A stretch of 64,000 bases of DNA from an uncultured virus (IMG/VR IMGVR_UViG_3300033146_001398) (taxonomy: Duplodnaviria; Heunggongvirae; Uroviricota; Caudoviricetes): IMG/VR virus record IMGVR_UViG_3300033146_001398. One strand, 5' to 3'. Numbering within the stretch: the stretch's first letter is position 1; every line of letters begins with the position of its first letter. Of the stretch, positions 1 through 51,329 are shown piece by piece. The position numbers and the translations under genes were made by a program. The notes beneath the pieces were generated by a model, which saw nothing but the letters and a program-made list of their open reading frames with translations, was not told the DNA's origin and ran no database searches.

Positions 1-1939
1 CTTCGGAAGGAGTACTTATAGCTTGATTAATAACATCAAGATAAGTATATTTAGTTCCATCACCAAAAGTTAAATCACGACTTATAACATATTGAGAAGC
101 TACAAGTGATTGTATACTTTCATCCCAAACAGTACCATAATCGTTAGTTTCAGTATTAATCATAGACTTAATTTCTCTGAAAGTTAAAGGATAATCAACA
201 CCACCACCAGTTACAGTTTGAGGTAATATCTCATATTGATTATAAGTATAACCAGTATCTCTTGATGTGTCAGAAGAAGCCTTAAATAAAATTGCTATAT
301 ACTTTACATTAGTAGAATCAAAACTTGTTCCACTTTTTGTTAAAGGAGTATCTTCACTATTAACATCAATATAAGAGTATTCTGGTGCAGCATTTTGTGC
401 GTTAGGTTCATACTTATTAGATATTCTCCATAACTTCCATTCATTAGAAGAATCTATTGCTAAAAAATAGGTTCCTTCAATATTAGTATTACTGTATCGT
501 CTAGTCCACAACGCTAATTTATTAGATGATAAATCTTTAGTTGTTGCAAAAGATTTACTTAACCCAACATAATTAGTTTTGTAACCTCTAAAACCACTAG
601 ATGTTGAATCTCTCCAATAACGATTAGACCCTTCAGCAGTATAAGTATCATTATATTCAGTATTAATCATACCATACTCAGTTAAAGTTGGTGTAACAAT
701 TCCTGTACTTAAGGAAACTTGTGTACCTTGATTCAATGCTTTGGAATCAGTCCATACTTCATACCAATGTCCTTCAATATCTGTATCAGCAATAATATGT
801 TCATGTAGATAATATATCCCATCACTAATACCAATACCACTAGCACCCACAATATTATATATTCTGTAATCTGTTAATTTTATACTACTTTTAAAATAAT
901 TTGTAACATCAATTTGATAAGAGCCAGTTCCATAAGTTTGACAAGTGTTAGCTCCACAAGTAGCAACATTATTATCAGGAACACCAGTACCAGAGTAATT
1001 AGTCATAACTAAATATCCTCTTCCACCACTAGTTGTTTGATATTGTCTATACTCAGCAAATGTTGCAGTATCACCATTAGCCCAAGTAATAGCATCACCA
1101 GGAGTACAACCAGCCATTGTTGAAGCTTGGTCTACTCTAAATTGCCATTGATTTGTTCCACTGAAAACTGTTGCGGTAGGGGATTCAACCTCTGGAGCAG
1201 AACCACTTGATAACGCTTTTCCACTAGTATAAACAGCAGCTCTCCAACCAGCATCTGATTGAGTTAAAGTTAAATTTGATAAAGCTCTAATAGGAGTAAT
1301 TTCTAAAGGTTGTAAAGGTGTGCCAGTTCCTCTATCCATAACAATAAACCCAGTACCAATACTTTGGTCATCTCCAGGAATTGAAGCAGTGAAACTTGGA
1401 ATAACACCAGCATCTTCAACTTTTACATACATATTACTGTCATTATATGAATATAATAATCTTACAGAAGATTCAGTTGTAGGAGTTATATTATCTGCAT
1501 CTGAATGACCCATATAATAAACTAACTGATTACTTGCAGTAGCAGTTAAACTAGGATATGTTAAAGTTGTACTACTTCCAGAAGATAAAGCATTAGCACC
1601 AGAGATTAAAGGTGTAACTGTATTAGCACCGCGAATAACTAATCCATATAAATAAATATATAAACTAGTAGAGTCTGTGTACATTGTAGAAAATTGTTCA
1701 TTATCAGTAGTAGCAAATTTGTACCAAACTTGGTTTTCCATTGTACCACTTTCTTCAGCATCAAGATAATTAGTCCAACCAGCATCATTCAAAAATAATC
1801 TGTCGTCATCATTAGCACACCAGCATATTATTAACAAATCTCCAGTTTTAACACTATTTATTACAGGTAAAGCTATATCTTCTATTCCATCACCAGCAGC
1901 AGTCCAATATTGTGTTTTAAATTCTACTTCGAAAGCCAT
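1..1939 (-). CDS. Large virion fibre/adhesin-like protein, partial (runs off the window; >640 aa)
   Basis: Not in ORF track; ATG at 1939 (MAFEVEFKTQYWTAAGDG...VKTGDLLIICW...); Thr/Ser/Gly-rich beta-type composition; lies in fibre gene cluster. Confidence 0.75.
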   Translation of the reverse strand, partial: MAFEVEFKTQYWTAAGDGIEDIALPVINSVKTGDLLIICWCANDDDRLFLNDAGWTNYLDAEESGTMENQVWYKFATTDNEQFSTMYTDSTSLYIYLYGLVIRGANTVTPLISGANALSSGSSTTLTYPSLTATASNQLVYYMGHSDADNITPTTESSVRLLYSYNDSNMYVKVEDAGVIPSFTASIPGDDQSIGTGFIVMDRGTGTPLQPLEITPIRALSNLTLTQSDAGWRAAVYTSGKALSSGSAPEVESPTATVFSGTNQWQFRVDQASTMAGCTPGDAITWANGDTATFAEYRQYQTTSGGRGYLVMTNYSGTGVPDNNVATCGANTCQTYGTGSYQIDVTNYFKSSIKLTDYRIYNIVGASGIGISDGIYYLHEHIIADTDIEGHWYEVWTDSKALNQGTQVSLSTGIVTPTLTEYGMINTEYNDTYTAEGSNRYWRDSTSSGFRGYKTNYVGLSKSFATTKDLSSNKLALWTRRYSNTNIEGTYFLAIDSSNEWKLWRISNKYEPNAQNAAPEYSYIDVNSEDTPLTKSGTSFDSTNVKYIAILFKASSDTSRDTGYTYNQYEILPQTVTGGGVDYPLTFREIKSMINTETNDYGTVWDESIQSLVASQYVISRDLTFGDGTKYTYLDVINQAISTPSE

Positions 1940-2931: not shown

Positions 2932-4722
2932 TTATACATCCTCTATTGTGAAGTCATCTAAATACCATGGAATTGTATTACCATTAGGAACAATACCTAA
3001 ACTTAATTCACCTTCTTTAACAACATCACTATCTAATACAGTTAATTCAACTTTAACCCAATTTAAACTACCTGTTGTAATAGTTGCGCTTGTAAAATCT
3101 CTGATTAGTAACCCATTATTTCTTGCTTTAAATTGAATAGTACCAACCCATCCTGAGTCCATCTTATAATAAAAACTAATCTTTTTACCAGTACCAACCT
3201 TAACATAAGTAGAAAATACTTTACCATCTTTTTCAAGATGTGTATATGTGGATTTCATCTGAATTTTCAGACTTGGATAGCTGCTGTGAACATTGGTAGA
3301 TTTAACAACACTGTATTTAGGATAATAACTTCCTTCTGCGAAATAATAATCTGCATTAGTTCCACTTAAAATATATCTTGGTTCTGATGCATCTCGTGTC
3401 AAATTAGGGTCGTAAATTAGTTTATTTTCATAACCAGCATCAATGCTACAATCTATTACTTCATTGCCAAGTGTTTGTAAAGCCGCTTCAAAAGCGTAAC
3501 TGCTTGGATTACCAAAATCACAATTTATAGCTTTAATTCCACCACAATAAACGTCAGTTTGAATACAATCATTAGAATTACGATGGATGTTATTTATACA
3601 CATAACGTTCGCAGCTTGTAGCAAATTTATATCATCACCAGTACAATCATGAAATTCACAGTTTTGAACTATTAACCCGTCTGCACCAGCAGCTGTTTTT
3701 ACCCCATCAGCACAATTATAAAACTTTATACCATCAATTAATAATGGAACACTGCCTACATTTAAACCAACAGTACAATAATATATTTCTAAATCTTCAA
3801 AATAATGACCGTACGGGCTGTTAGGTGACCAACCTCGAATACCAGCAGACATCGCATATATTTTACTTCGAATAAATCTTTGACCATAATGAGAAACACC
3901 CATAAGAATATAAGTTCCTTTATCACCAATAATAATTGAATCAATAATATCATATTTAAGACCATACATAAAATATCCTTGTGCACCTTCACTTGCAATA
4001 ATACAATTTGTTGCAGTAGTAGGAACTGAACTATTACCTGAAACCCAAGGAGCACGATAACTCCATAAGAAACAATTAGTGAAATTAGTTGAATAAACAG
4101 TACTATCTTTAATATAGTTACACTCAACCATATTTAATCTATCAATATTACAGTATTGTAATTGACCTGCAGCCTGAGCATCAATACCATTATAAGTAGT
4201 CATAGAACCATTTGGTTTTACCCAAGTTTCACCGTTTTGAGTAGTTTCAGTATCATATCCACCTCTAAAAGTAATCCTATCTACATTACGAGTACTCCAA
4301 ATAATAGAAACATTAGTTTGGTCGTTTGTTGCAATATTTACTTTTAAAATACTAGAAACTGTTTCAGTTAAACCATAATAATAACATTCCCAAGTAATTC
4401 TTGTACTTGTGATAGCTTCAATTCTTCCGAACCTTTCCATTAAAACACCATCAACAGTACCATTACCAACAGCACTTGGTTTCCCCACATAATCCCCCAC
4501 ACTTAAACTCCCAGTTAAATCTGTCGCAGTTTCAATGTATCTGCTGTTATTAGTAAAAGTACAATCAGCAGTAATAACAGTGTGTGCACTTGTTTCTTTC
4601 ACATTTATTTCATCATCTGATGTACAAAATGTTAGTACGTAATTCATAGTTTTATAAGGATTCGCATAACTCCCATCTCCTGTGGAATTATCTCCACTTA
4701 CTAAATCTACCCAATATATCAT
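2932..4722 (-). CDS. Right-handed beta-helix (tailspike/pectin-lyase-like) virion protein with C-terminal carbohydrate-binding-like domain
   Basis: N-terminal YWVDLVSGDNSTGDGSYANPYKT typical of beta-helix starts; repeated N-C-x-F/I-x-N-C rungs; C-terminal W..VELT..WYLDDF jelly-roll-like. Confidence 0.7.
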   Translation of the reverse strand: MIYWVDLVSGDNSTGDGSYANPYKTMNYVLTFCTSDDEINVKETSAHTVITADCTFTNNSRYIETATDLTGSLSVGDYVGKPSAVGNGTVDGVLMERFGRIEAITSTRITWECYYYGLTETVSSILKVNIATNDQTNVSIIWSTRNVDRITFRGGYDTETTQNGETWVKPNGSMTTYNGIDAQAAGQLQYCNIDRLNMVECNYIKDSTVYSTNFTNCFLWSYRAPWVSGNSSVPTTATNCIIASEGAQGYFMYGLKYDIIDSIIIGDKGTYILMGVSHYGQRFIRSKIYAMSAGIRGWSPNSPYGHYFEDLEIYYCTVGLNVGSVPLLIDGIKFYNCADGVKTAAGADGLIVQNCEFHDCTGDDINLLQAANVMCINNIHRNSNDCIQTDVYCGGIKAINCDFGNPSSYAFEAALQTLGNEVIDCSIDAGYENKLIYDPNLTRDASEPRYILSGTNADYYFAEGSYYPKYSVVKSTNVHSSYPSLKIQMKSTYTHLEKDGKVFSTYVKVGTGKKISFYYKMDSGWVGTIQFKARNNGLLIRDFTSATITTGSLNWVKVELTVLDSDVVKEGELSLGIVPNGNTIPWYLDDFTIEDV

Positions 4723-8227: not shown

Positions 8228-9055
8228 CTAACTATTTATATATTTTTTCTTTTTAAATACGAGCAAATATTCATGCGCTTTAGCAGTCTTTTTATATTTT
8301 TTTGCTTGCCCAAAATAAAATGCTGCAGTATGAAAAGGTATATTTTGTATCGCAATAATATCATGAACTATTAAAATATCTTTTAACTTCTGAATTAAGT
8401 CAGAATGTAAAGTTATATATTCTCCATTATGTCTAAAATCGCCTATAACTATAGCAATATACGCGTCAGCTGCTAAATAAGGAAGACACCCTACTAATCT
8501 AACAACAAGTTCTTTTAAAAACAAATCATAATTAGTTATAGCAGATAATTGACCATCTTCGTTGCCGTACTTTTCTAAATGCCAATATGGCGGACAAGTA
8601 AATAATAAATTAAATTTATTTAGCCAATAATTGCCTAATATTGAAATATTTTTGCAATCATTATTAAAAACAGTAGCATTTACAGCGTATTTAGTTTTAT
8701 TTTCTACAACTGATAATTTACTATTAATATAATCAGACACGGGTTTACTAATATCAAAACCAATATATTCTCTATTCATTGCTACAGATACTAATGCTCG
8801 TGTGCGTCCAGCAAATGGGTCTAATATTTTATCATTCTCTTCACTCCAAAAACTTATAATATTTTTCGCGACAGCAGGAGAAAATTCACTTAATATCTCA
8901 GTGTCATCAAAAAAATTCACAAAACTATCTTTTAAGTGCTCACTATTCATATCGTTATATTTATTATATAACCAAAAACTAGAATAACTTGTATCTCGTT
9001 TTGCAAATATTTTATCTTTGCCTAGTAAATCATTTTTAGCGTTTTTAATTACCAT
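8228..9055 (-). CDS. DNA amino-methyltransferase (m4C/m6A type)
   Basis: SAM-binding motif I ILDPFAG and catalytic motif IV FTCPPY; HEYLLVFKK C-terminus. Confidence 0.85.
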   Translation of the reverse strand: MVIKNAKNDLLGKDKIFAKRDTSYSSFWLYNKYNDMNSEHLKDSFVNFFDDTEILSEFSPAVAKNIISFWSEENDKILDPFAGRTRALVSVAMNREYIGFDISKPVSDYINSKLSVVENKTKYAVNATVFNNDCKNISILGNYWLNKFNLLFTCPPYWHLEKYGNEDGQLSAITNYDLFLKELVVRLVGCLPYLAADAYIAIVIGDFRHNGEYITLHSDLIQKLKDILIVHDIIAIQNIPFHTAAFYFGQAKKYKKTAKAHEYLLVFKKKKYINS

Positions 9056-9980
9056 CGTCTAAGAACCTCTTAACATCATCTAATACTTTATATTTATCAT
9101 TAGCCCATTCATGTTCCCAAATAATAAATGTAGAATAACCTAGTTTAGTTAACAACTCAGCTCTTAAAGGCTCAATTTCTAAATTTCTTTTTACTTTTAA
9201 ATGAGACTTTAATAATTTTTTATCATTACGATATTCTGGGCAACATATAGGACATGCGTGATAATAACATCCGTTATACTCTATTATTTTTTTTTTTAAT
9301 TTAAAATCAACAGTGTACCACATAATTTGAAATTGATGTATTATTTTATCATTTATTTTTAACAACTCTTTATATACTTCTTTTTCTGTTTGAGAAGTTT
9401 TCTTTGTTGCTACACGAGCCAAAGAAATCGACATTTTTCTTACAGAGTCAGAAGTATATTTAGTAAGACCTTTAGACCACCCACATTTCTTAGAATATGC
9501 TAAAACTCTAGAATCATTTTCTTTATTTAAACCGAAATTCCAAGGACTTTTGCCAATATTAGCTTTAGATATTTTTAATCTTGCTTCAGAACTTAAGTGT
9601 TTATCTTGCATAGGATTTTTATTAACTTTATAATATTCTTTAAGAGTCTTAGATATTTTTATTTTAGTTTTACTAGACAGTTTTTTATTTCGTAAACTTA
9701 TACTTAAATTTTTTCTATGTTCAGCAGTTAACACTTTGTTTAAGCTACCTTTAGAAATATTTTCTTTATGTTGTTTACTTAAAATTTTTCCAGTGTGCGC
9801 TATACTGAGTTGTTTTCTATGTGCTAAACTTAATTTTTTTCCTTTGTTCCACGCACTACAAACACCAATAGTACCTTTATTCCATGCTTTCTTTCCTATC
9901 TTTGAGCATGATATAGAACAATAACTAACAGTTTTTCTCATGTCTTTTTCAGTTCCACAATGTAAACATTTTTTTAACAT
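9045..9980 (-). CDS. Putative homing endonuclease: NUMOD3-like repeats + Vsr/DUF559-like nuclease
   Basis: AWNKG/PWNFGL and H-S-x-E-x-R/K-x-K-I-S repeats; YTVDF..IIEYNGCYYHAC..IIWEHEW. Confidence 0.8.
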   Translation of the reverse strand: MLKKCLHCGTEKDMRKTVSYCSISCSKIGKKAWNKGTIGVCSAWNKGKKLSLAHRKQLSIAHTGKILSKQHKENISKGSLNKVLTAEHRKNLSISLRNKKLSSKTKIKISKTLKEYYKVNKNPMQDKHLSSEARLKISKANIGKSPWNFGLNKENDSRVLAYSKKCGWSKGLTKYTSDSVRKMSISLARVATKKTSQTEKEVYKELLKINDKIIHQFQIMWYTVDFKLKKKIIEYNGCYYHACPICCPEYRNDKKLLKSHLKVKRNLEIEPLRAELLTKLGYSTFIIWEHEWANDKYKVLDDVKRFLDDGN

Positions 9981-10018
9981 AGTAATAGTATTAACTTACT
10001 ATTTATATATTTTCTCTT

Positions 10019-11029
10019 TTAACTCTCTAAAAATTTTCGTATCTTATTAAATACATTCTCTCTGTTTTCTTTCCATTCATGTTCCCAAATTTCTAACAGT
10101 CTATAATCGTATTTTTCATACATTTTAATTTTTTTATTATAATTATTAATTGTTTGATTTGCTCTAAAATGTTTTTTAGTATCCTGTAGTACGTTAGGAC
10201 AACATGTCTGGCATCCGTGCCAATAGCAGCCGTTGTATTCTATTATTTTTTTCTTTTCTTCAAATCTGAAATCAGGTTTACAAGAAAAATTTGTAAATTT
10301 CATTTTAGTATCATGTAAAAATACAAAATTATTTTTAAGTAAAAAATCATTAATTTCTAACTCAGCAATAGAATTTCCCATTGTTGGTCTCAGCGAAGCT
10401 TTATCTGATTGTCTTTGTCGCATTAAATCGTATTTTTCAGCACCTAAATATTCAGATGTAGTTATATTTAATTTTCGTAACATATTATAATATTTTTGTG
10501 CTCTTTTACTACCATTTTTACTTTGTTGCAAACGTCCAGCGTCAGTAGCAAAATATTTTTTCATCCCATCACTAACATTCTTTCTAACTATATCATAGGT
10601 TCCATTTTCTTTTTTATTTTTAATTGACAAACTAATTGCTTTTCCTCGTGTTATTCTAGCTTCTACAGTTTGTATCTTACCTTCTAATAGCGCTTTTTTA
10701 ACACCAGTAGAAATCTTTTGTTTATATTCATCTGTAGTTCTATTTGTATTTTTAAAATTATTATTTAATGTGTAGCGTTTATGCCACTCTTCAGGATTAT
10801 CTTTTTTTATTTTATCTAGAGAGGCTTTTTGAGAGTTAGACTGTACCCGCAGTTGTTCGCAATTATCTTTTGTTTTTCCCTTCCATTTACATGGTCGTTG
10901 ACTAACAAGTCTAGAATTAGGATATAATAATTTATATTGAGCAGTAGTTAACTTATGTTTTGCTTTTATATGCGATGTTAGTATCAACGCTTCAAAACCA
11001 CATACTTTACATATTATTTTATTAACCAT
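10019..11029 (-). CDS. Putative homing endonuclease: C2H2 Zn finger + Vsr/DUF559-like nuclease
   Basis: CKVCG..HIKAKH; KPDF..IIEYNGCYWHGC..EIWEHEW; paralog of 9045..9980. Confidence 0.8.
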   Translation of the reverse strand: MVNKIICKVCGFEALILTSHIKAKHKLTTAQYKLLYPNSRLVSQRPCKWKGKTKDNCEQLRVQSNSQKASLDKIKKDNPEEWHKRYTLNNNFKNTNRTTDEYKQKISTGVKKALLEGKIQTVEARITRGKAISLSIKNKKENGTYDIVRKNVSDGMKKYFATDAGRLQQSKNGSKRAQKYYNMLRKLNITTSEYLGAEKYDLMRQRQSDKASLRPTMGNSIAELEINDFLLKNNFVFLHDTKMKFTNFSCKPDFRFEEKKKIIEYNGCYWHGCQTCCPNVLQDTKKHFRANQTINNYNKKIKMYEKYDYRLLEIWEHEWKENRENVFNKIRKFLES

Positions 11030-20958: not shown

Positions 20959-21801
20959 CTATTGTACCTCAGCCAGCATATTCACACACTCAACAAAACT
21001 CTCTTTGTCTGTTAATAAAATTAAATCATTTTGTTTATAGCCATTGTTATCTAATAACAATCTACGTCTAGTATAGTACTCAACACTTGTTTCAGAACTT
21101 CGCCATGTTTCTGGATGTATTTCTACAAAAATATTTCCTATTTTAAAATCTATTCGTTTTAGTCCTATATGAAATTCAGAAACAAAATTAACATTATTTG
21201 CTATTAACAATCTAACAAAATCACTTTCATACAATGACGCGTATTGTACCCCAGCAACTTTATTTTTAGGATTATTTGTTAATGACGCTTTTCTACAACG
21301 TTCAGCAGACTTAGCTTTATTTTCTTTCGACCACCAGCCAATTTCAGTTTTAACTTGTAATTCTACACCTTTTTTTCTTTGCTCTGTTGTAAAACACTCT
21401 TTACCTTGTTCTCTCCATTGTTTTTGACACGCGGTTCCGCCTTTTTTTGCTAAAATAGTTTGCGAGACAGAATTATAAAAACCTAATTTATTTTTTTTAG
21501 AATATTGTATATAACATGAGTGAGAACAAAATTTATGATGTCGAATTTTTTTACCGCACCCATAACAATTATATAGTATTATAGGATTTTTTTTAATCCA
21601 TTGTGCAGAACTTCTTGCTGACAACGCCTTTTGTATTTTAGAATTATAAAAACCTAATTTATTTTTTTTAGAATGTATTTTATAACATTGCATTGAACAA
21701 TATTTTGTATTGCTTGTTTTAGCTGCACATTCAACACACGTATTAGTTTTAGTGTTCTTGCGCAATCCTTTATTCCATGGTATACCGCCTTTAATTACCA
21801 T
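20959..21801 (-). CDS. Putative homing endonuclease (PD-(D/E)XK/DUF559-like) with duplicated Zn-binding unit
   Basis: PWNKGL; two CxxC..CSxxCY..SKKNKLGFYNS units (35-bp exact repeat 21469..21503 / 21640..21674); RIDFKIGNIFVEIHP. Confidence 0.7.
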   Translation of the reverse strand: MVIKGGIPWNKGLRKNTKTNTCVECAAKTSNTKYCSMQCYKIHSKKNKLGFYNSKIQKALSARSSAQWIKKNPIILYNCYGCGKKIRHHKFCSHSCYIQYSKKNKLGFYNSVSQTILAKKGGTACQKQWREQGKECFTTEQRKKGVELQVKTEIGWWSKENKAKSAERCRKASLTNNPKNKVAGVQYASLYESDFVRLLIANNVNFVSEFHIGLKRIDFKIGNIFVEIHPETWRSSETSVEYYTRRRLLLDNNGYKQNDLILLTDKESFVECVNMLAEVQ

Positions 21802-22366: not shown

Positions 22367-22507
22367 TTTAGTTATTAGTATTGTTTATATTGTACTATTT
22401 ATATATTTTTTCTTTTTTAAATATAAATGTGCAGACACTCCCAATCTGCGTGTATGCGTTTTCTTCCAACTGAATGGCATTCAAAGCGTTTCGACGAACT
22501 ATAAAAA

Positions 22508-22641
22508 GCAAAGAGTGGGATTCGAACCCACACAACCCGTCCGAGCCTCACGTTAACAAGCTTCGGTTTTACGCATTGTATTCAGCCATTTAATAGACGA
22601 CTACGCTAACGTTGTATCCCCGTCGTCTATCCATTCTTTGC
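22508..22641 (-). ncRNA. tRNA-like RNA (134 nt): canonical acceptor and T arms, two extended internal arms
   Basis: GCAAAGA/TCTTTGC 7-bp stem; GTGGG-TTCGAAT-CCCAC; ATAGACGAC/GTCGTCTAT 9-bp arm; followed by TTTTT. Confidence 0.6.
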
Positions 22642-22689
22642 ATTGAGCTCCTGCTACCTCGCAAGCTCTGGTAGTTCTCATTTTATCCT

Positions 22690-23136
22690 CTAAACCCCTT
22701 TCTTCAGGGTTATGTGCGTTAATAACAATAAAGATAATTCATATTTATCTCTTCTAGCACCTAGCGGATGGTCTCGTAAATTATCTTTTAAGTCTGCTAT
22801 CTTAATTTTTCTAGCCAAGTTTGTAATGATATTATCACATTCTAACAAATATCTTATGTAATCACAATAAGACATGAAATCCTTTTTAGTTAACATTGCA
22901 ACAGCAATTTGAATATCAATTGTTACGAACTCTTCTTTTCTTAATTCTTCTTCTGTAACATCTGTGTCTTCTACAACATCATGTAAAACTGCAGTTATTT
23001 TTTCTTCCCAAGTATCTAAGGAATCAGCAACACGCAATGGATGAGTTATGTAAGCATCACCATTGCTACGCTTTTGTCCAGCATGAGCTTTAGTTGCAAA
23101 CTCTACAGCTGCCTTATAATCTTTTTCTGTGTTCAT
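22690..23136 (-). CDS. HD-domain hydrolase, RelA/SpoT hydrolase (Mesh1-like) family
   Basis: AHAGQKR..G..YITHP..VA, AVLHDVVEDT, LTK, IKIADLKDNL; likely start MNTEK. Confidence 0.9.
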   Translation of the reverse strand: MNTEKDYKAAVEFATKAHAGQKRSNGDAYITHPLRVADSLDTWEEKITAVLHDVVEDTDVTEEELRKEEFVTIDIQIAVAMLTKKDFMSYCDYIRYLLECDNIITNLARKIKIADLKDNLRDHPLGARRDKYELSLLLLTHITLKKGV

Positions 23137-23364
23137 TTTAAATATAAATAAAGGTTGACCAAACCTTAAGGGGTAATACACGATGAAAAACGAGGTTAAT
23201 AACTCCTCTTTTGACGGTCTATCAAAAATCCAGTGCCAGCGCCCAACTTAGGTAACCTCTTGGATAATTGGTTGCGACTACAAATCAAGACTTATTTTTA
23301 ACCTCTGCAGGCGGAGTTGCACCTCTCATGAACTGCTTGACTTGTGACATTTCTGGTTTGATTA

Positions 23365-23481
23365 TTAATTATGCGGATGTTCCATCCTCCGTGATATTTC
23401 CATTGAACAATCAATACATATTCTAGTGATTGGGTCCCACTCTTCTTTGGGTACATCGTTCTTACATAAATGACATTCCAT
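23365..23481 (-). CDS. Zn-finger microprotein (38 aa)
   Basis: MECHLCKNDVPKEEWDPITRICIDCSMEISRRMEHPHN. Confidence 0.55.
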   Translation of the reverse strand: MECHLCKNDVPKEEWDPITRICIDCSMEISRRMEHPHN

Positions 23482-23544
23482 GATTATAAAAAGCAGGGCG
23501 ACCGTGAGGATTAAGCGCTGCCAATACCTCTTGTCGTTGCCTCT

Positions 23545-23784
23545 TTAAGCTTTAGGTTCTTCTTTAACTTCAGCTACAGGTTCTTCTTTAACTTCTACTG
23601 TTGCGTCAGCTTTAGGTTCGTTACTTATTTCAGCTCTTCGATTAATTTCACTCACGAGTACATTTAAGTTTCCTTGTTGAATTCTAATTGTTTCGTTAGC
23701 TTGACTAATAAGCCCTATTGTTTGCGTGTGCATCTTATGTAACTCTAATTCAGTAAAGTCTTGTACATTTTTGTTTTGTTCCAT
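23545..23784 (-). CDS. Hypothetical coiled-coil protein
   Basis: TATA motif 23807..23824 upstream; EVKEEP repeated. Confidence 0.65.
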   Translation of the reverse strand: MEQNKNVQDFTELELHKMHTQTIGLISQANETIRIQQGNLNVLVSEINRRAEISNEPKADATVEVKEEPVAEVKEEPKA

Positions 23785-23810
23785 TTTTAAATTTTTATTT
23801 TTAATACTAT

Positions 23811-24032
23811 TTATATATTTTTTCTTTTTAGTAACAAAGCACGATTCACCTTTATAGACCGAGTAACCATAGCTTCAGCTTCGTCATTCGAAATAACTTT
23901 ATACCCAGCTGCATTAGTGACACCTTTTCTTATAGCGTACCCGTCACAGCGGGTACATTTAAACAGACCGAATTTTTCGGCTACTAAAGATTTACCGCAA
24001 CCAGCAGGACACCAATGAGTATATCCTTTCAT
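23811..24032 (-). CDS. Zn-ribbon protein
   Basis: WCPAGCGK...FKCTRC. Confidence 0.6.
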   Translation of the reverse strand: MKGYTHWCPAGCGKSLVAEKFGLFKCTRCDGYAIRKGVTNAAGYKVISNDEAEAMVTRSIKVNRALLLKRKNI

Positions 24033-35413: not shown

Positions 35414-36013
35414 ATGGTAAATAATTTTTATGAAATTGTAAAAAAAGTAAATTCTATGACGAACTCTCAAGTAAGAGCACAAGTTATATTATTACTTTTA
35501 GAGACAGACAGAGAAGGAGTTAATGATTTAATTAAATTTTTGTTAGATTCAGACTTTTTTAAAATGCCTGCGAGTACAAAATGGCATTTACCCGAAGAAG
35601 GTGGGTTAGCGAGACATAGCTTATCTGTGTATAATTTTTTTAAACATATATTAATTGAACTCGGTGTATTTGACACACATAAGAACTCTATCGTCCTCTC
35701 AGCGCTACTACACGATGTATGTAAACATGATAGTTACAAATTAGTAGAAGATAAATGGAAATACAACCAAACAGATGATAATAGACATGCACAAAAATCA
35801 ATAAATATTATTACTAAATTAATAAATTTGAAGTCGATTGAAGAAAAAATGATTAAATATCATATGGGTATTTATATGACCACTGAATTTTTAGCAGGTT
35901 CAACATACGCGACACCCGAATATAGTTTGAATGATATGAGTATTGCATTTGATAGTGATTTGGCTAAATTGATGCATTTCGCGGACAATCTTAGCAGCAT
36001 ATATGGAATGTAA
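35414..36013 (+). CDS. HD-domain phosphohydrolase
   Basis: PASTKWH...GGLARHS, ALLHDVCK, H, YHMG, HFAD. Confidence 0.9.
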   Translation: MVNNFYEIVKKVNSMTNSQVRAQVILLLLETDREGVNDLIKFLLDSDFFKMPASTKWHLPEEGGLARHSLSVYNFFKHILIELGVFDTHKNSIVLSALLHDVCKHDSYKLVEDKWKYNQTDDNRHAQKSINIITKLINLKSIEEKMIKYHMGIYMTTEFLAGSTYATPEYSLNDMSIAFDSDLAKLMHFADNLSSIYGM

Positions 36014-48641: not shown

Positions 48642-49490
48642 ATGGATAAAGATTTATCATTAGTTCGTGTCGTCGAGATAGAGCTAAATAGTTTCTGCAA
48701 TCGAACATGTTCTTGGTGTCCGAACAAATTTATTGATAGAACAAAATCACAAAAAATAAATTTAAGAAGTTATAAAAAATTATTGCTTGACTTAGTATTT
48801 TTTGAGGCTGGTAAAAATTCAGGGTTAACCGTATCTTTTTCTAGAAATAATGAACCATTCTATGATATTGAACATTTAAAATTTATGGTTGACCTTGCTC
48901 GGAATTTACTCCCATCAAATACACGATTAGTTTCAAATACAAATGGTGATTATCTAACTAATAAAAGTTTTAAAAATTTAAAGTTAGATGAAGTTAGTAT
49001 AATGGATTATAATTCTGATGGTTTAGAGAAATGTGTACTAAAATTAAATAAGCTCGGTGCAATTAATATTGATGCAGATTATCCATTTATTAAAGCAAAG
49101 ATAGAAGATACTGATATTTTATATTATGTAGATTGGTCTAAGTTCCATAAAATAGAAGATAGAGCAGGTTTGCTAGGTGACGTGTCAAAAGGCGAGATAG
49201 TCCCTAGAAAAGCTAAATGTCTAGAACCTATATATTTTATTGCAATAGATTATAATGGTAACGTGATGTCTTGTTGTAATCTAAGAAGCGATGCAAAACA
49301 ACATAGCAAATTAATATTGGGAAATATATACGCTCAAGACATTAATAGCATCTATCATAGCAGAGCAGCAACAAAGTTTAGAAAAAAATTAAGTAGCGGA
49401 CATCGTTTATTTTATCCTAACGTGTGTAAAACTTGTACTAAAAAGCCTGGTAGATATACCAGAGATAAAGGAGGAATTAATTATGAATAA
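48642..49490 (+). CDS. Radical SAM protein with SPASM/twitch domain
   Basis: CNRTCSWC, NEPF, TNGD; C..P....IDYNGNVMSCC...LGNI...CKTC. Confidence 0.9.
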   Translation: MDKDLSLVRVVEIELNSFCNRTCSWCPNKFIDRTKSQKINLRSYKKLLLDLVFFEAGKNSGLTVSFSRNNEPFYDIEHLKFMVDLARNLLPSNTRLVSNTNGDYLTNKSFKNLKLDEVSIMDYNSDGLEKCVLKLNKLGAINIDADYPFIKAKIEDTDILYYVDWSKFHKIEDRAGLLGDVSKGEIVPRKAKCLEPIYFIAIDYNGNVMSCCNLRSDAKQHSKLILGNIYAQDINSIYHSRAATKFRKKLSSGHRLFYPNVCKTCTKKPGRYTRDKGGINYE

Positions 49491-50139
49491 ATGCGGAATA
49501 TTTATGCCGGGTAGATTAGGAGGCCAGAGACTATTAAATAAATTAATATTGCCAATGGGTGATACTTGTTTATGGGAAATAGCATGCAAGAAATTATCTC
49601 AAATTTCTGATGTAGACGAAAAATGTGTATTAATTTGTAAAGAAGATACAGCACTAAATTATATTGCTAATAAATACAATTTAAAAATTATTTATCGTGA
49701 CCCTGAAACAGCAGCAAAAGATAGCCCACTCAATTTTGTTTTTAAAGATGTAGAGAAAATGGAGTCAGATGTAATTATGTTCTTAAATCCTTGTCTGCCT
49801 TTTCTAAAAATAGAGAGTGTTTTATATGGATTTATGTTTATAACTGAATTTAATAAATATGTTGAGTCAGTAAAAGAATTTAATAGTTGGATTTATGATG
49901 AACATAGTGTAGCTAATATAGAGTTAGATTACACAGAGATGAACACTAAATTTTTGCCAGCACAATTCGAAGCTGCGCATGCATTTAGAATTTTTGATAA
50001 GAAATCATTCTTAAAAGATGGAAATATGTCTGCAAAAAATACTTGTCTTTGTTTACTTAATGCTAACGAATGTATTGATGTAGATACAAAAGAAGATTAT
50101 GAATTTGCAAGGTGGAAATATGAAAAAAATAATAGTTGA
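49483..50139 (+). CDS. neuA: Acylneuraminate cytidylyltransferase-like protein
   Basis: MPGRLGGQRLLNK, R....A.D, LNPCLPFL, IDVDTKEDYEFA. Confidence 0.8.
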   Translation: MNKCGIFMPGRLGGQRLLNKLILPMGDTCLWEIACKKLSQISDVDEKCVLICKEDTALNYIANKYNLKIIYRDPETAAKDSPLNFVFKDVEKMESDVIMFLNPCLPFLKIESVLYGFMFITEFNKYVESVKEFNSWIYDEHSVANIELDYTEMNTKFLPAQFEAAHAFRIFDKKSFLKDGNMSAKNTCLCLLNANECIDVDTKEDYEFARWKYEKNNS

Positions 50140-50491
50140 TATAGATGGAACAATTTGCACTCAATGTGAAGATTATAATAATGCAAAGCCGATCATAAAC
50201 AGAATTGAGGAACTAAATAAATTATTTGAGTCTGGTGTAGACATAGTATATTTCACTGCTCGTGGTACTGAAACATGTATTGATTGGCGAAAAATAACTG
50301 AAGAACAATTTAAAAAATGGAATGTTAAATATACTAAGTTATTATTTGGGAAACCATCAGGTGATTTATACATAGATGATAAAGCATTTACGTTAGAACA
50401 ACTTGATATGTATATTAAGTTAAAAGATAATAAAAAACAAAAGCTAAAAAATATTATTCAGAAGGCAATAGAAAATGGAAAAAGAAGATAA
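50120..50491 (+). CDS. HAD-family phosphatase
   Basis: Start MKKIIVDIDGTIC; FTARG; GKPSGDLYIDDK. Confidence 0.85.
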   Translation: MKKIIVDIDGTICTQCEDYNNAKPIINRIEELNKLFESGVDIVYFTARGTETCIDWRKITEEQFKKWNVKYTKLLFGKPSGDLYIDDKAFTLEQLDMYIKLKDNKKQKLKNIIQKAIENGKRR

Positions 50492-51329
50492 AATTATTTG
50501 CGAGATTGGAATAAATCATGAAGGTATAGTAGAAAACGCATTAACTATGATTAGACAAGCTAAACATGCTGGTGCTGATTTTGTTAAATTTCAAAAAAGA
50601 AACCCTGATATTTGTGTTCCAGAAGAGTACAAAAATGATACAGTTATTTTTAATAACAAACGCATGACATATCTAGAGCAAAAGAAAATATTAGAATTTG
50701 ATACTTATGATTATAATATTATTGATAACTTTTGTGGTGAACTAAATATAAAATGGTTTGCATCAGTGTTTGATATAGATAGTTTAAAATTTATTAGTCG
50801 ATACAAATCTGCTGGTATTATAAAAATACCTAGTTCTCAAATATGTAATATAGAGCTTCTTACTCAAACCCGTAAGGTTGCTCTCAAAAATAAGTTAGAA
50901 GTATTCATTTCAACTGGTGCATCAGAACTCAGTGATATACAACGAGCAGTAGAATTACTTGGCGAAACTTTAACAGTCATATTTCACACTACGTCAATTT
51001 ACCCTTGCCCTGATGATACACTTGATTTAACAAAAATAACTGAGCTACAAAAAATGTTTCCTGATAAAAATATTGGGTACTCAAATCATTATTCAAACGG
51101 TTTTCCAGCAATAGTTGCTAAAACTTTAGGTGCTACTTATTTCGAATTTCACGTTCAGGGTGTGTATACTAAAGAAATATGTGATAATTTAATGTCTTTA
51201 ACGTATGATAATTTTTGTCAGATATGTAGCATACTTAAAAAAATGAATTATTGGAACGGCGAAGCGATATTTAAGGCTAAAGATGAAGAATTAGCGAAAT
51301 TACGTAAACAACAATATTTTTTAGATTAA
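50475..51329 (+). CDS. neuB: N-acetylneuraminate/nonulosonate synthase, no C-terminal AFP domain
   Basis: CEIGINHEG, GADFVKFQKR, ASVFD..S, KIPS, ISTG, H..S.YP, GYSNH, EFH. Confidence 0.9.
   Translation: MEKEDKIICEIGINHEGIVENALTMIRQAKHAGADFVKFQKRNPDICVPEEYKNDTVIFNNKRMTYLEQKKILEFDTYDYNIIDNFCGELNIKWFASVFDIDSLKFISRYKSAGIIKIPSSQICNIELLTQTRKVALKNKLEVFISTGASELSDIQRAVELLGETLTVIFHTTSIYPCPDDTLDLTKITELQKMFPDKNIGYSNHYSNGFPAIVAKTLGATYFEFHVQGVYTKEICDNLMSLTYDNFCQICSILKKMNYWNGEAIFKAKDEELAKLRKQQYFLD

Follow-up and report, generated by a model that had tools for sequence, protein, structure and literature searches.

Results

A tRNA-like element at the end of a predicted viral transcription unit

The DNA analysed here is a stretch of 64,000 nucleotides from an uncultured virus, referred to below as the window. 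The virus is tailed, as its genes for a terminase, a MuF-like protein, a capsid protein, a prohead protease and a tail tube protein indicate, and its large terminase and portal are normal. Judged by its sequence it infects an archaeon, because it carries BRE-TATA promoters, repeated about 25 nt ahead of start codons, as well as a family B polymerase, a Holliday resolvase and an MCM-like helicase (the last a feature-based lead held with high confidence). Two homing-endonuclease-like genes lie beside the capsid gene (window 9045-11029 and 20959-21801, minus strand), and a 280-aa ORF before the terminase gene resembles such genes by eye, with no family match. A sugar-modification cluster (48642-51329, plus strand) encodes a SPASM protein, a cytidylyltransferase, a HAD phosphatase and NeuB.

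On the minus strand, 1.55 kb upstream of the terminase gene, lies a tRNA-like element of 135 nt (Table 1). A motif scan found no promoter of the element's own; it is the last part of a unit that starts near 23821 and contains a 79-aa gene, a structured intergenic region, an HD gene and a putative 26-codon ORF. An ORF of this kind, with a Shine-Dalgarno sequence (SD) and entering the 5' half of the element, had been noted in the initial annotation, and it exists (22681-22601); ORFs that are 20-45 codons long and preceded by an SD of this type number 15 in the window. The intergenic stretch at 23170-23545 (minus strand) is G+C-rich and contains hairpins, T runs and a T-loop-like word near 23320; it folds no better than shuffles, and it gives a permuted-tmRNA call in ARAGORN at -ps70 only.

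The HD protein, whose best solved match is 7smg, has in our alignment no counterparts of D24, D116 and R119 of Aph1 (residues as given in the accessible part of PMC10083569). The initial annotation had placed the element next to a SpoT-type hydrolase, and the neighbour is indeed small-alarmone-hydrolase-like (HD_4); a functional link does not follow, as no similar element occurs in the best 80 of 196 related viral HD loci, eight of which have a tRNA and one another stack that resembles an ordinary class II tRNA. Coupling of the element to the hydrolase was therefore rejected. A second HD protein is encoded at 35414-36013.

Table 1. Features of the tRNA-like element and its transcription unit (window coordinates; element position p = 22642 - window position).
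Feature	Position	Strand	Remarks
Nearest upstream BRE-TATA-type promoter	23800..23821	-	would give one transcript through 79-aa gene, HD gene and element
HD_4 small-alarmone-hydrolase-like gene	22690..23136	-	upstream neighbour
26-codon ORF, putative	22601..22681	-	starts 8 nt past HD stop, ends at element position 41
Small hairpin in 5' leader	22645..22668	-	
Whole tRNA-like element	22507..22641	-	135 nt
Acceptor stem, 5' strand GCAAAGA	22635..22641	-	7/7 Watson-Crick pairs with 22508-22514
Hairpin 1 (element 11-50)	22592..22631	-	10-bp stem, 20-nt loop; holds insert 1 (about element 17-52)
Loop 1 segment (element 30-38)	22604..22612	-	predicted kissing helix with element 84-92
Unpaired linker	22580..22591	-	12 nt, with D-loop-like GG
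Hairpin 2, interrupted (element 63-110)	22532..22579	-	16 bp
Anticodon-loop-like heptamer TT-GTT-AA (Asn)	22553..22559	-	displaced
Variable-arm-like hairpin	22534..22547	-	5 bp, long-V tRNA-Asn register; alternative to hairpin 2
T arm	22515..22531	-	5 Watson-Crick pairs, canonical loop TTCGAAT
Acceptor stem, 3' strand, and discriminator U	22507..22514	-	
T run TTTTT	22503..22507	-	possible archaeal terminator
Next BRE-TATA-type promoter, downstream of element	22396..22409	-	

The acceptor/T-arm stack

The upper half of the element agrees with that of a canonical tRNA (RF00005): a 7-bp acceptor stem, a 5-bp T stem and a canonical T loop form a stack of 7/5 geometry in which 12 of 12 pairs are Watson-Crick. 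A check of the sequence places G1 at 22641, C72 at 22508 and the discriminator, a T (U73), at 22507, and no CCA is encoded; the perfect minus-strand stack, the T run after it and the lack of CCA are thus all present as the initial annotation described them. Its acceptor/T-arm stack without a decoding arm at a transcript boundary is also the arrangement of a t-element. Only two T-arm-like sites in the window form four or more of the five stem pairs; that of the element is the sole 5/5 site and the only one of the two with an acceptor complement. The 5' heptamer occurs nine times in 128 kb (both strands), and a complement within 90 nt has a chance probability of about 0.6%. The stack is genuine and beyond chance.

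The fold of the whole element (-45 kcal/mol) was equalled by 0 of 200 and 0 of 1000 shuffles. Folded alone, the interior gives a weaker signal (36/1000 shuffles as stable), as do hairpin 1 (35/1000) and hairpin 2 (19/1000). With 47% G+C against 31% in the window, the element ranks in the top 0.06% of 135-nt segments and marks the G+C peak of the window.

The interior and a predicted loop-loop pair

Below the stack lie two hairpins. The first had been described as a 9-bp hairpin with a 20-nt loop; the loop stands, and the stem is one pair longer, with nine Watson-Crick pairs and one G-U pair. On either side of it stands one copy of AATGG, a direct repeat of 5 nt (element 7-11 and 52-56). Hairpin 2 is made up of an anticodon-stem-like 5' strand (element 66-70), a second insert (72-83), the anticodon loop, a 3' strand and the variable arm. 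Although no standard D loop or 7-nt anticodon loop had been seen in the initial annotation, an Asn-type heptamer and a D-arm-like stretch, TGGCTGAAT at 22588-22580 (minus strand), do exist; what holds is that both are displaced from their tRNA positions. TGGCTGAAT is identical to positions 8-16 of the tRNA-Asn with a long variable arm (long-V) of phage phAPEC8.

Loop 1 (element 30-38) is complementary over 8-9 bp to the loop of hairpin 2 at 84-92, which is the Asn anticodon loop. The duplex is worth -10.3 kcal/mol, and shuffled loops do as well in 25 of 20000 cases (196/20000 with a wider loop, 20/20000 in a separate test); when the null covers all loop pairs, 9 of 2000 shuffles match it. The first loop is accordingly modelled as kissing the anticodon loop, a predicted pair that the earlier reading had overlooked and that occurs in 0 of 5 other odd tRNA-like elements compared. 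Pairing of insert 2, by comparison with its shuffles, is within chance (541/5000 as good). Because the two-hairpin fold (-45.0 kcal/mol) is more stable than folds in which the anticodon and variable arms of a tRNA are retained (-30.3 and -32.7 kcal/mol), and because of the loop-loop pair, the anticodon would lie outside its own stem in the unspliced RNA, where by this model it is probably paired away. As a single sequence without an interior homolog among the sequences searched, the element offers no covariation support for the kiss or for hairpin 2.

Both loops hold 6-nt palindromes, and a homodimer is predicted at -101 kcal/mol, against -90 kcal/mol for two monomers. The packaging RNA of phi29 associates hand in hand, and the complementary palindromic loops and the position upstream of the terminase gene would suit a structural RNA that associates with itself through its two loops and serves packaging. 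We regard such a role as extremely improbable, given a large terminase and portal of normal type, the lack of any such element in the majority of relatives and the ordinary tRNAs that several of them carry in its place.

Searches for known RNA families

At normal thresholds neither ARAGORN nor Rfam reports the element, and the default, relaxed, intron, tmRNA and mitochondrial modes of ARAGORN give merely low-threshold calls that disagree with one another. The ARAGORN, intron-aware and Rfam searches proposed in the initial annotation thus recovered no ordinary and no intron-containing tRNA. At low threshold Rfam detects the T arm alone, and the 3' half is not reported by its tRNA model. A contiguous cloverleaf with a D arm and a 5-bp/7-nt anticodon arm is absent from the element. 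The core of a canonical tRNA includes U8, R9, A14 and the G15-C48 pair; the best reconstruction of the element has A8, U9 and G15 opposite U48, and so lacks U8, R9, G15-C48 and also G73.

Other identities were tried and rejected. A3-U70 in place of G3-U70, the missing CCA and an RF00023 match confined to the T arm do not fit a tmRNA or mini-tmRNA. As for an intron-encoded box C/D guide, a single CTGA occurs (element 57), at a distance of 18 nt to the antisense segment, and no C box is present even with one mismatch. Neither Y RNA (YrlA) nor any other Rfam family matches the element. Two viral tRNA-Leu(UAA) share its last 24 bases and have a 5-bp stem word in common with hairpin 1, and nothing else of them fits; the tRNA-Thr(UGU) of relatives have G1-C72, C2-G71 and U73, and no Thr loop closes a stem in the element.

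Likeness to phage tRNA-Asn with a long variable arm

The interior is probably not arbitrary, to judge from its sequence: the final 53 bases agree in register with phage long-V tRNA-Asn(GUU), with about 36 and 12 extra bases interrupting. A pattern scan built from the element returned 19 loci, one of which (L154) holds an ordinary long-V tRNA-Asn(GUU) that is identical to element 83-135 at 36 of 53 positions without a gap; the L154 record, 38% complete, contains no terminase of this virus's family and no MCM. When 88 tRNAs from all loci were compared in a register anchored on the T arm, the best three were long-V tRNA-Asn, with 18, 14 and 12 of 28 positions, and the next scored 11. Such tRNAs are common in phages (L107, L140, L154, L155, L166 and L169-L173), and five of the ten collected are annotated in GenBank (PVP-SE1, phAPEC8, PSTCR5, phi1_175008 and Tr1); the scan pattern itself favoured long-V tRNA-Asn, L173 was reached by a similarity chain from L154, and only L155 is fairly independent. 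A literature search found no paper devoted to long-V phage tRNA-Asn(GUU).

With these tRNAs the element shares the anticodon-loop heptamer (YU-GUU-A), the spacing to the T arm, the 5-bp variable hairpin and D-arm-like words, the loop, variable hairpin and T arm standing in class II register, a likeness that is subject to selection bias. In three hand-picked sequences, 14 of 15 cells of the variable hairpin are paired, and three of its five pairs show changes on both sides. A model built from nine long-V tRNA-Asn without L154 places the variable arm and T arm of the element in register, but at only 13.9 bits, a score that does not exceed those of other non-canonical stacks (12.8-16.3). In contrast to these tRNAs, all nine of which in our alignment carry U8, A14 and G73, the element has two inserts, no U8, U73 instead of G73, an archaeal host and an anticodon stem that closes only once 12 nt have been deleted.

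A scripted deletion of element 17-52 and 72-83 yields a D stem with 3 of 4 pairs, a D-loop GG, an anticodon stem with 4 of 5 pairs and the Asn loop in exact register, and ARAGORN calls the product tRNA-Asn at its default threshold. The consensus score of this product was reached by 90/3000 and 223/3000 shuffles, and by 0 and 1/3000 when a bulge-helix-bulge (BHB) was also demanded, under nulls that were shaped with the result already in view. When the test was loosened, ARAGORN made a call for 69 of 300 shuffles too, and for the element itself it made Val, Thr, Phe, Tyr and Asn calls. An alternative D-arm mapping, in which element 54-62 (tRNA positions 8-16, as in phAPEC8) goes with 79-82, fits about equally well. 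From these sequence comparisons we consider descent of the element from a long-V tRNA-Asn fairly probable.

Such descent would also leave room for a recently broken tRNA-Asn pseudogene, in which hairpin 1 is a small inserted element, the rest is drifting with no current function and the match between the loops arose incidentally, from an inverted copy or from two palindromes. The AATGG direct repeat combined with perfect 9-bp inverted ends, the 6-nt palindrome in each loop and the many deviations in the core speak for it; its slot is optional in relatives (L028, for example, has no element), and viral tRNA pseudogenes and undetermined tRNAs have been reported, among them putative pseudogenes in haloviruses (PMC13532342, as far as its accessible text goes). 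Yet all 12 top-half pairs are Watson-Crick and the T loop is canonical although about seven core features have changed, no other part of the window has as high a G+C content, and the loop-loop match is rare in shuffles. We hold a pseudogene to be unlikely.

The question of splicing

No clear BHB had been found in the initial annotation. This has to be corrected: a strict one is present at insert 1 (element 17-52), in a slipped register that a GAC repeat makes possible, with a 4-bp centre, two 3-nt bulges, two outer and five inner pairs, exactly at the junction that restores the D arm. The register costs about 15 kcal/mol (+2.0 against -13.1 kcal/mol for the perfect helix), and insert 2 has neither a BHB nor a bulge-helix-loop (BHL) motif, so that the element does not have the BHB or BHL at every intron that marks archaeal BHB introns. 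The best product of two-step splicing guided by BHB scored 12.5 of 17, a value equalled in 5 of 100 shuffles; four real tRNAs scored 16.5-17. Up to three ordered relaxed splices gave 19,748 products with 14 weak cloverleaves, none with the Asn loop.

These results bear on a reading of the element as a pre-tRNA-Asn with two introns, one in the D loop (16/17, 36 nt) and one of 12 nt at 31/32 or 32/33; a broad-specificity host endonuclease would turn it into a functional long-V tRNA(GUU), and until splicing the antisense loop would guard the anticodon. The position of the strict BHB and the ARAGORN call for the two-deletion product speak for it, as does the use of Asn, which makes up 7% of codons in the window. 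Two types of archaeal endonuclease are reported to cut relaxed motifs at non-canonical sites (PMC3239211, accessible part), and an HFTV1 tRNA with a putative 5-nt intron is described as expressed and ribosome-associated in the available text of bioRxiv 10.64898/2026.09.13.751334; we therefore keep a spliced tRNA under consideration, at low odds. It is made rather improbable by the energetic cost of the BHB register, the bare second insert, the lack of any splice product with the Asn loop in a cloverleaf, and a product that would have no U8, R9, G15-C48 or G73 when U8, A14 and G73 are constant in the aligned long-V tRNA-Asn.

Archaeal pre-tRNAs with several introns, as portrayed in the accessible parts of PMC3239211 and PMC4033280, have BHB or BHL motifs and insert sequences that pair with the anticodon loop; the element resembles them in its slipped BHB at a D-loop position and in the pairing of its insert, and differs in a strongly disfavoured BHB register, a motif-free second insert and the absence of a splice route to a tRNA. 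In Lak megaphages, too, viral tRNA genes carry inserts, described as enigmatic introns, whose removal is unexplained, but, according to the available portion of PMC6784885, these are bacterial genes that tRNAscan detects and that show conservation from one genome to another, whereas the element has a damaged core and no relative that we could find.

Relatives of the locus

Terminase relatives were fetched as 17 loci from viral contigs and 35 from metagenomes, and 28 of the 30 closest were scanned, two near-duplicates being left out; many had little upstream DNA. The nearest relatives have the terminases P0002 (78%), P0003 (66%) and P0005-P0007 (55-56%), on contigs of up to 78 kb. Acceptor/T stacks upstream of the terminase gene and on its strand occur in 6 of the 28. 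Canonical tRNAs are found there in L032 and L037 (identical tRNA-Thr), L042 (tRNA-Thr) and L027 (tRNA-Val), and three stacks are non-canonical, with unrelated interiors: that of L009, a second element of L027 and that of L035. A further stack match in L030 looks like chance, and Rfam confirms three tRNAs among 13 loci. With tRNAs or look-alikes in 6 of 28 relatives, the region appears to serve this group of viruses as an optional tRNA slot; L028, with 72% terminase identity, shares a small downstream gene with our virus and has no element. Pattern searches, BLAST and terminase scans found no homolog of the interior in the fetched loci, viral contigs, genomes or GenBank phages, and the genome pattern search for the element gave one match, in a bacterial tRNA cluster.

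The 119-nt tRNA-like gene of L009 (9826-9944, plus strand) belongs to a related virus and lies 2 nt ahead of its terminase start; it has a perfect top half, a 5-bp D-like hairpin, a long variable arm, two small hairpins in place of the anticodon region, no U8 and no Rfam match, and a 68-codon cysteine-rich ORF runs 36 nt into it. L027 presents a row of structured RNA (406-731, plus strand); besides a structured stretch and the tRNA-Val it comprises a long hairpin and a tRNA-like element of 69 nt that has neither U8 nor U33. The 76-nt top-half element of L035 (137-215, plus strand) has a C discriminator, an encoded CCA, a T run and one internal hairpin.

The unrelated interiors of these stacks could mean that the top half alone matters, as a t-element-like processing site or a 3'-end tag of the HD-gene transcript, with the interior being filler or mRNA structure and its likeness to tRNA-Asn a chance one. 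The element does close its transcription unit, ahead of the T run and the next promoter, the model scores are weak and the looser null is permissive (69/300), and an upstream ORF also enters the L009 element by 36 nt. The register match to long-V tRNA-Asn and the loop-loop complementarity argue against it, and the downstream gene has its own promoter, so that a tRNase Z cut is not needed for a 5' end. We find this improbable.

Discussion

The reading that we prefer, and to which we give roughly an even chance, is that of a tRNA-Asn-derived, non-decoding RNA that is excised by the tRNA-trimming enzymes of the host and has its anticodon masked. A viral gene for a long-V tRNA-Asn(GUU) would have received two insertions that remodelled its lower half, while its top half stayed perfect. 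Transcribed as the last part of the unit from the promoter near 23821, it would be cut out by host RNase P (or a protein substitute) and tRNase Z, which would read the top half only and release a stable RNA of about 135 nt, to which CCA is possibly added. The loop-loop pair would lock the anticodon away and block decoding; the most likely job of the RNA would be to occupy those tRNA-binding proteins of the host that recognise the elbow and the acceptor end, and the element would also fix the 3' end of its own transcript. Hard to square with an RNase P cut is the ORF that enters the element by 41 nt, as another enters the L009 element by 36 nt, since the cut would truncate both.

The initial annotation had already proposed a non-decoding look-alike handled by RNase P and tRNase Z, which is our best reading as well; the decoy for anticodon nucleases that it offered as an example is doubtful, since the predicted pairing would hide the anticodon, and a decoy for proteins that bind the elbow and acceptor would suit better. 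Phage tRNAs are reported to counter tRNA-cutting defences through supplementation (PMC11555353, accessible part). As an alternative to mimicry it had named a tRNA with unusual introns; an ordinary intron-containing tRNA failed the splice tests, but the two are not exclusive, as the body looks like a tRNA-Asn with inserts. A bolder and quite unlikely variant is a caged viral tRNA, whose inserted hairpin carries the antisense of its own anticodon loop, locks that loop in a kissing complex and hides it from anticodon nucleases and ribosomes, the RNA acting either as a decoy for top-half binders or as a store that is uncaged by ordered, non-BHB removal of the inserts.

The nearest known systems share parts of this design. 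T-elements reportedly occur in plant mitochondria. Those of Haloferax, in the 5S rRNA leader, are cut by RNase P and tRNase Z (PMC4326828, in its accessible part) and, like the element, which would be an expected substrate of both enzymes, combine a tRNA top half without a working decoding arm with a transcript boundary; the element differs from them, as that source describes them, in being viral and in having a folded interior of 103 nt, a tRNA-Asn remnant, a loop-loop pair and no known neighbouring RNA to release. TRNAs with variable arms and unexpected anticodons are on record (PMC4033280, PMC5389517, available portions), as are enigmatic introns of phage tRNAs (PMC6784885, likewise in part). 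Allo-tRNAs and irregular tRNA polycistrons share with the element a long variable arm, U73, a non-matching anticodon and a possible non-translational role; in the accessible text of PMC5389517 their branches are 8/4 or 9/3 and their anticodon loop is open, as opposed to the 7/5 branch and masked loop here. A literature search that covered few subscription journals found no viral tRNA-derived RNA that masks its own anticodon.

Since tRNA finders overlook such genes, archaeal viruses may hold a hidden layer of tRNA-shaped RNAs. If the top half and the self-masked anticodon are functional, the virus has converted a tRNA gene into a non-decoding RNA matured by its host. The element would then be a small, testable substrate for the role of viral tRNA look-alikes and for archaeal splicing beyond BHB; if it is a pseudogene, the matter is one of minor annotation.

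Several further tRNA-like genes were encountered in the loci. Oversized ones in phages (L055 3000-3135, L060 3000-3142 and L164/L165 about 1490-1593) combine a normal D arm with an anticodon region that is extended or made up of several hairpins. Odd tRNA-Ile-like genes in L056-L059 (around 3001-3122; 472-593 in L059) adjoin an abiF RNA; in an alternative fold, the D arm and the 3' strand of the acceptor can base-pair with their leader. Viral contigs also contain 78-80-nt tmRNA-like pieces without a coding part (L150 1535-1612, L151 and L154 1078-1157), and those of L150 and L154 score 59.7-63.9 bits with the Rfam tmRNA model.
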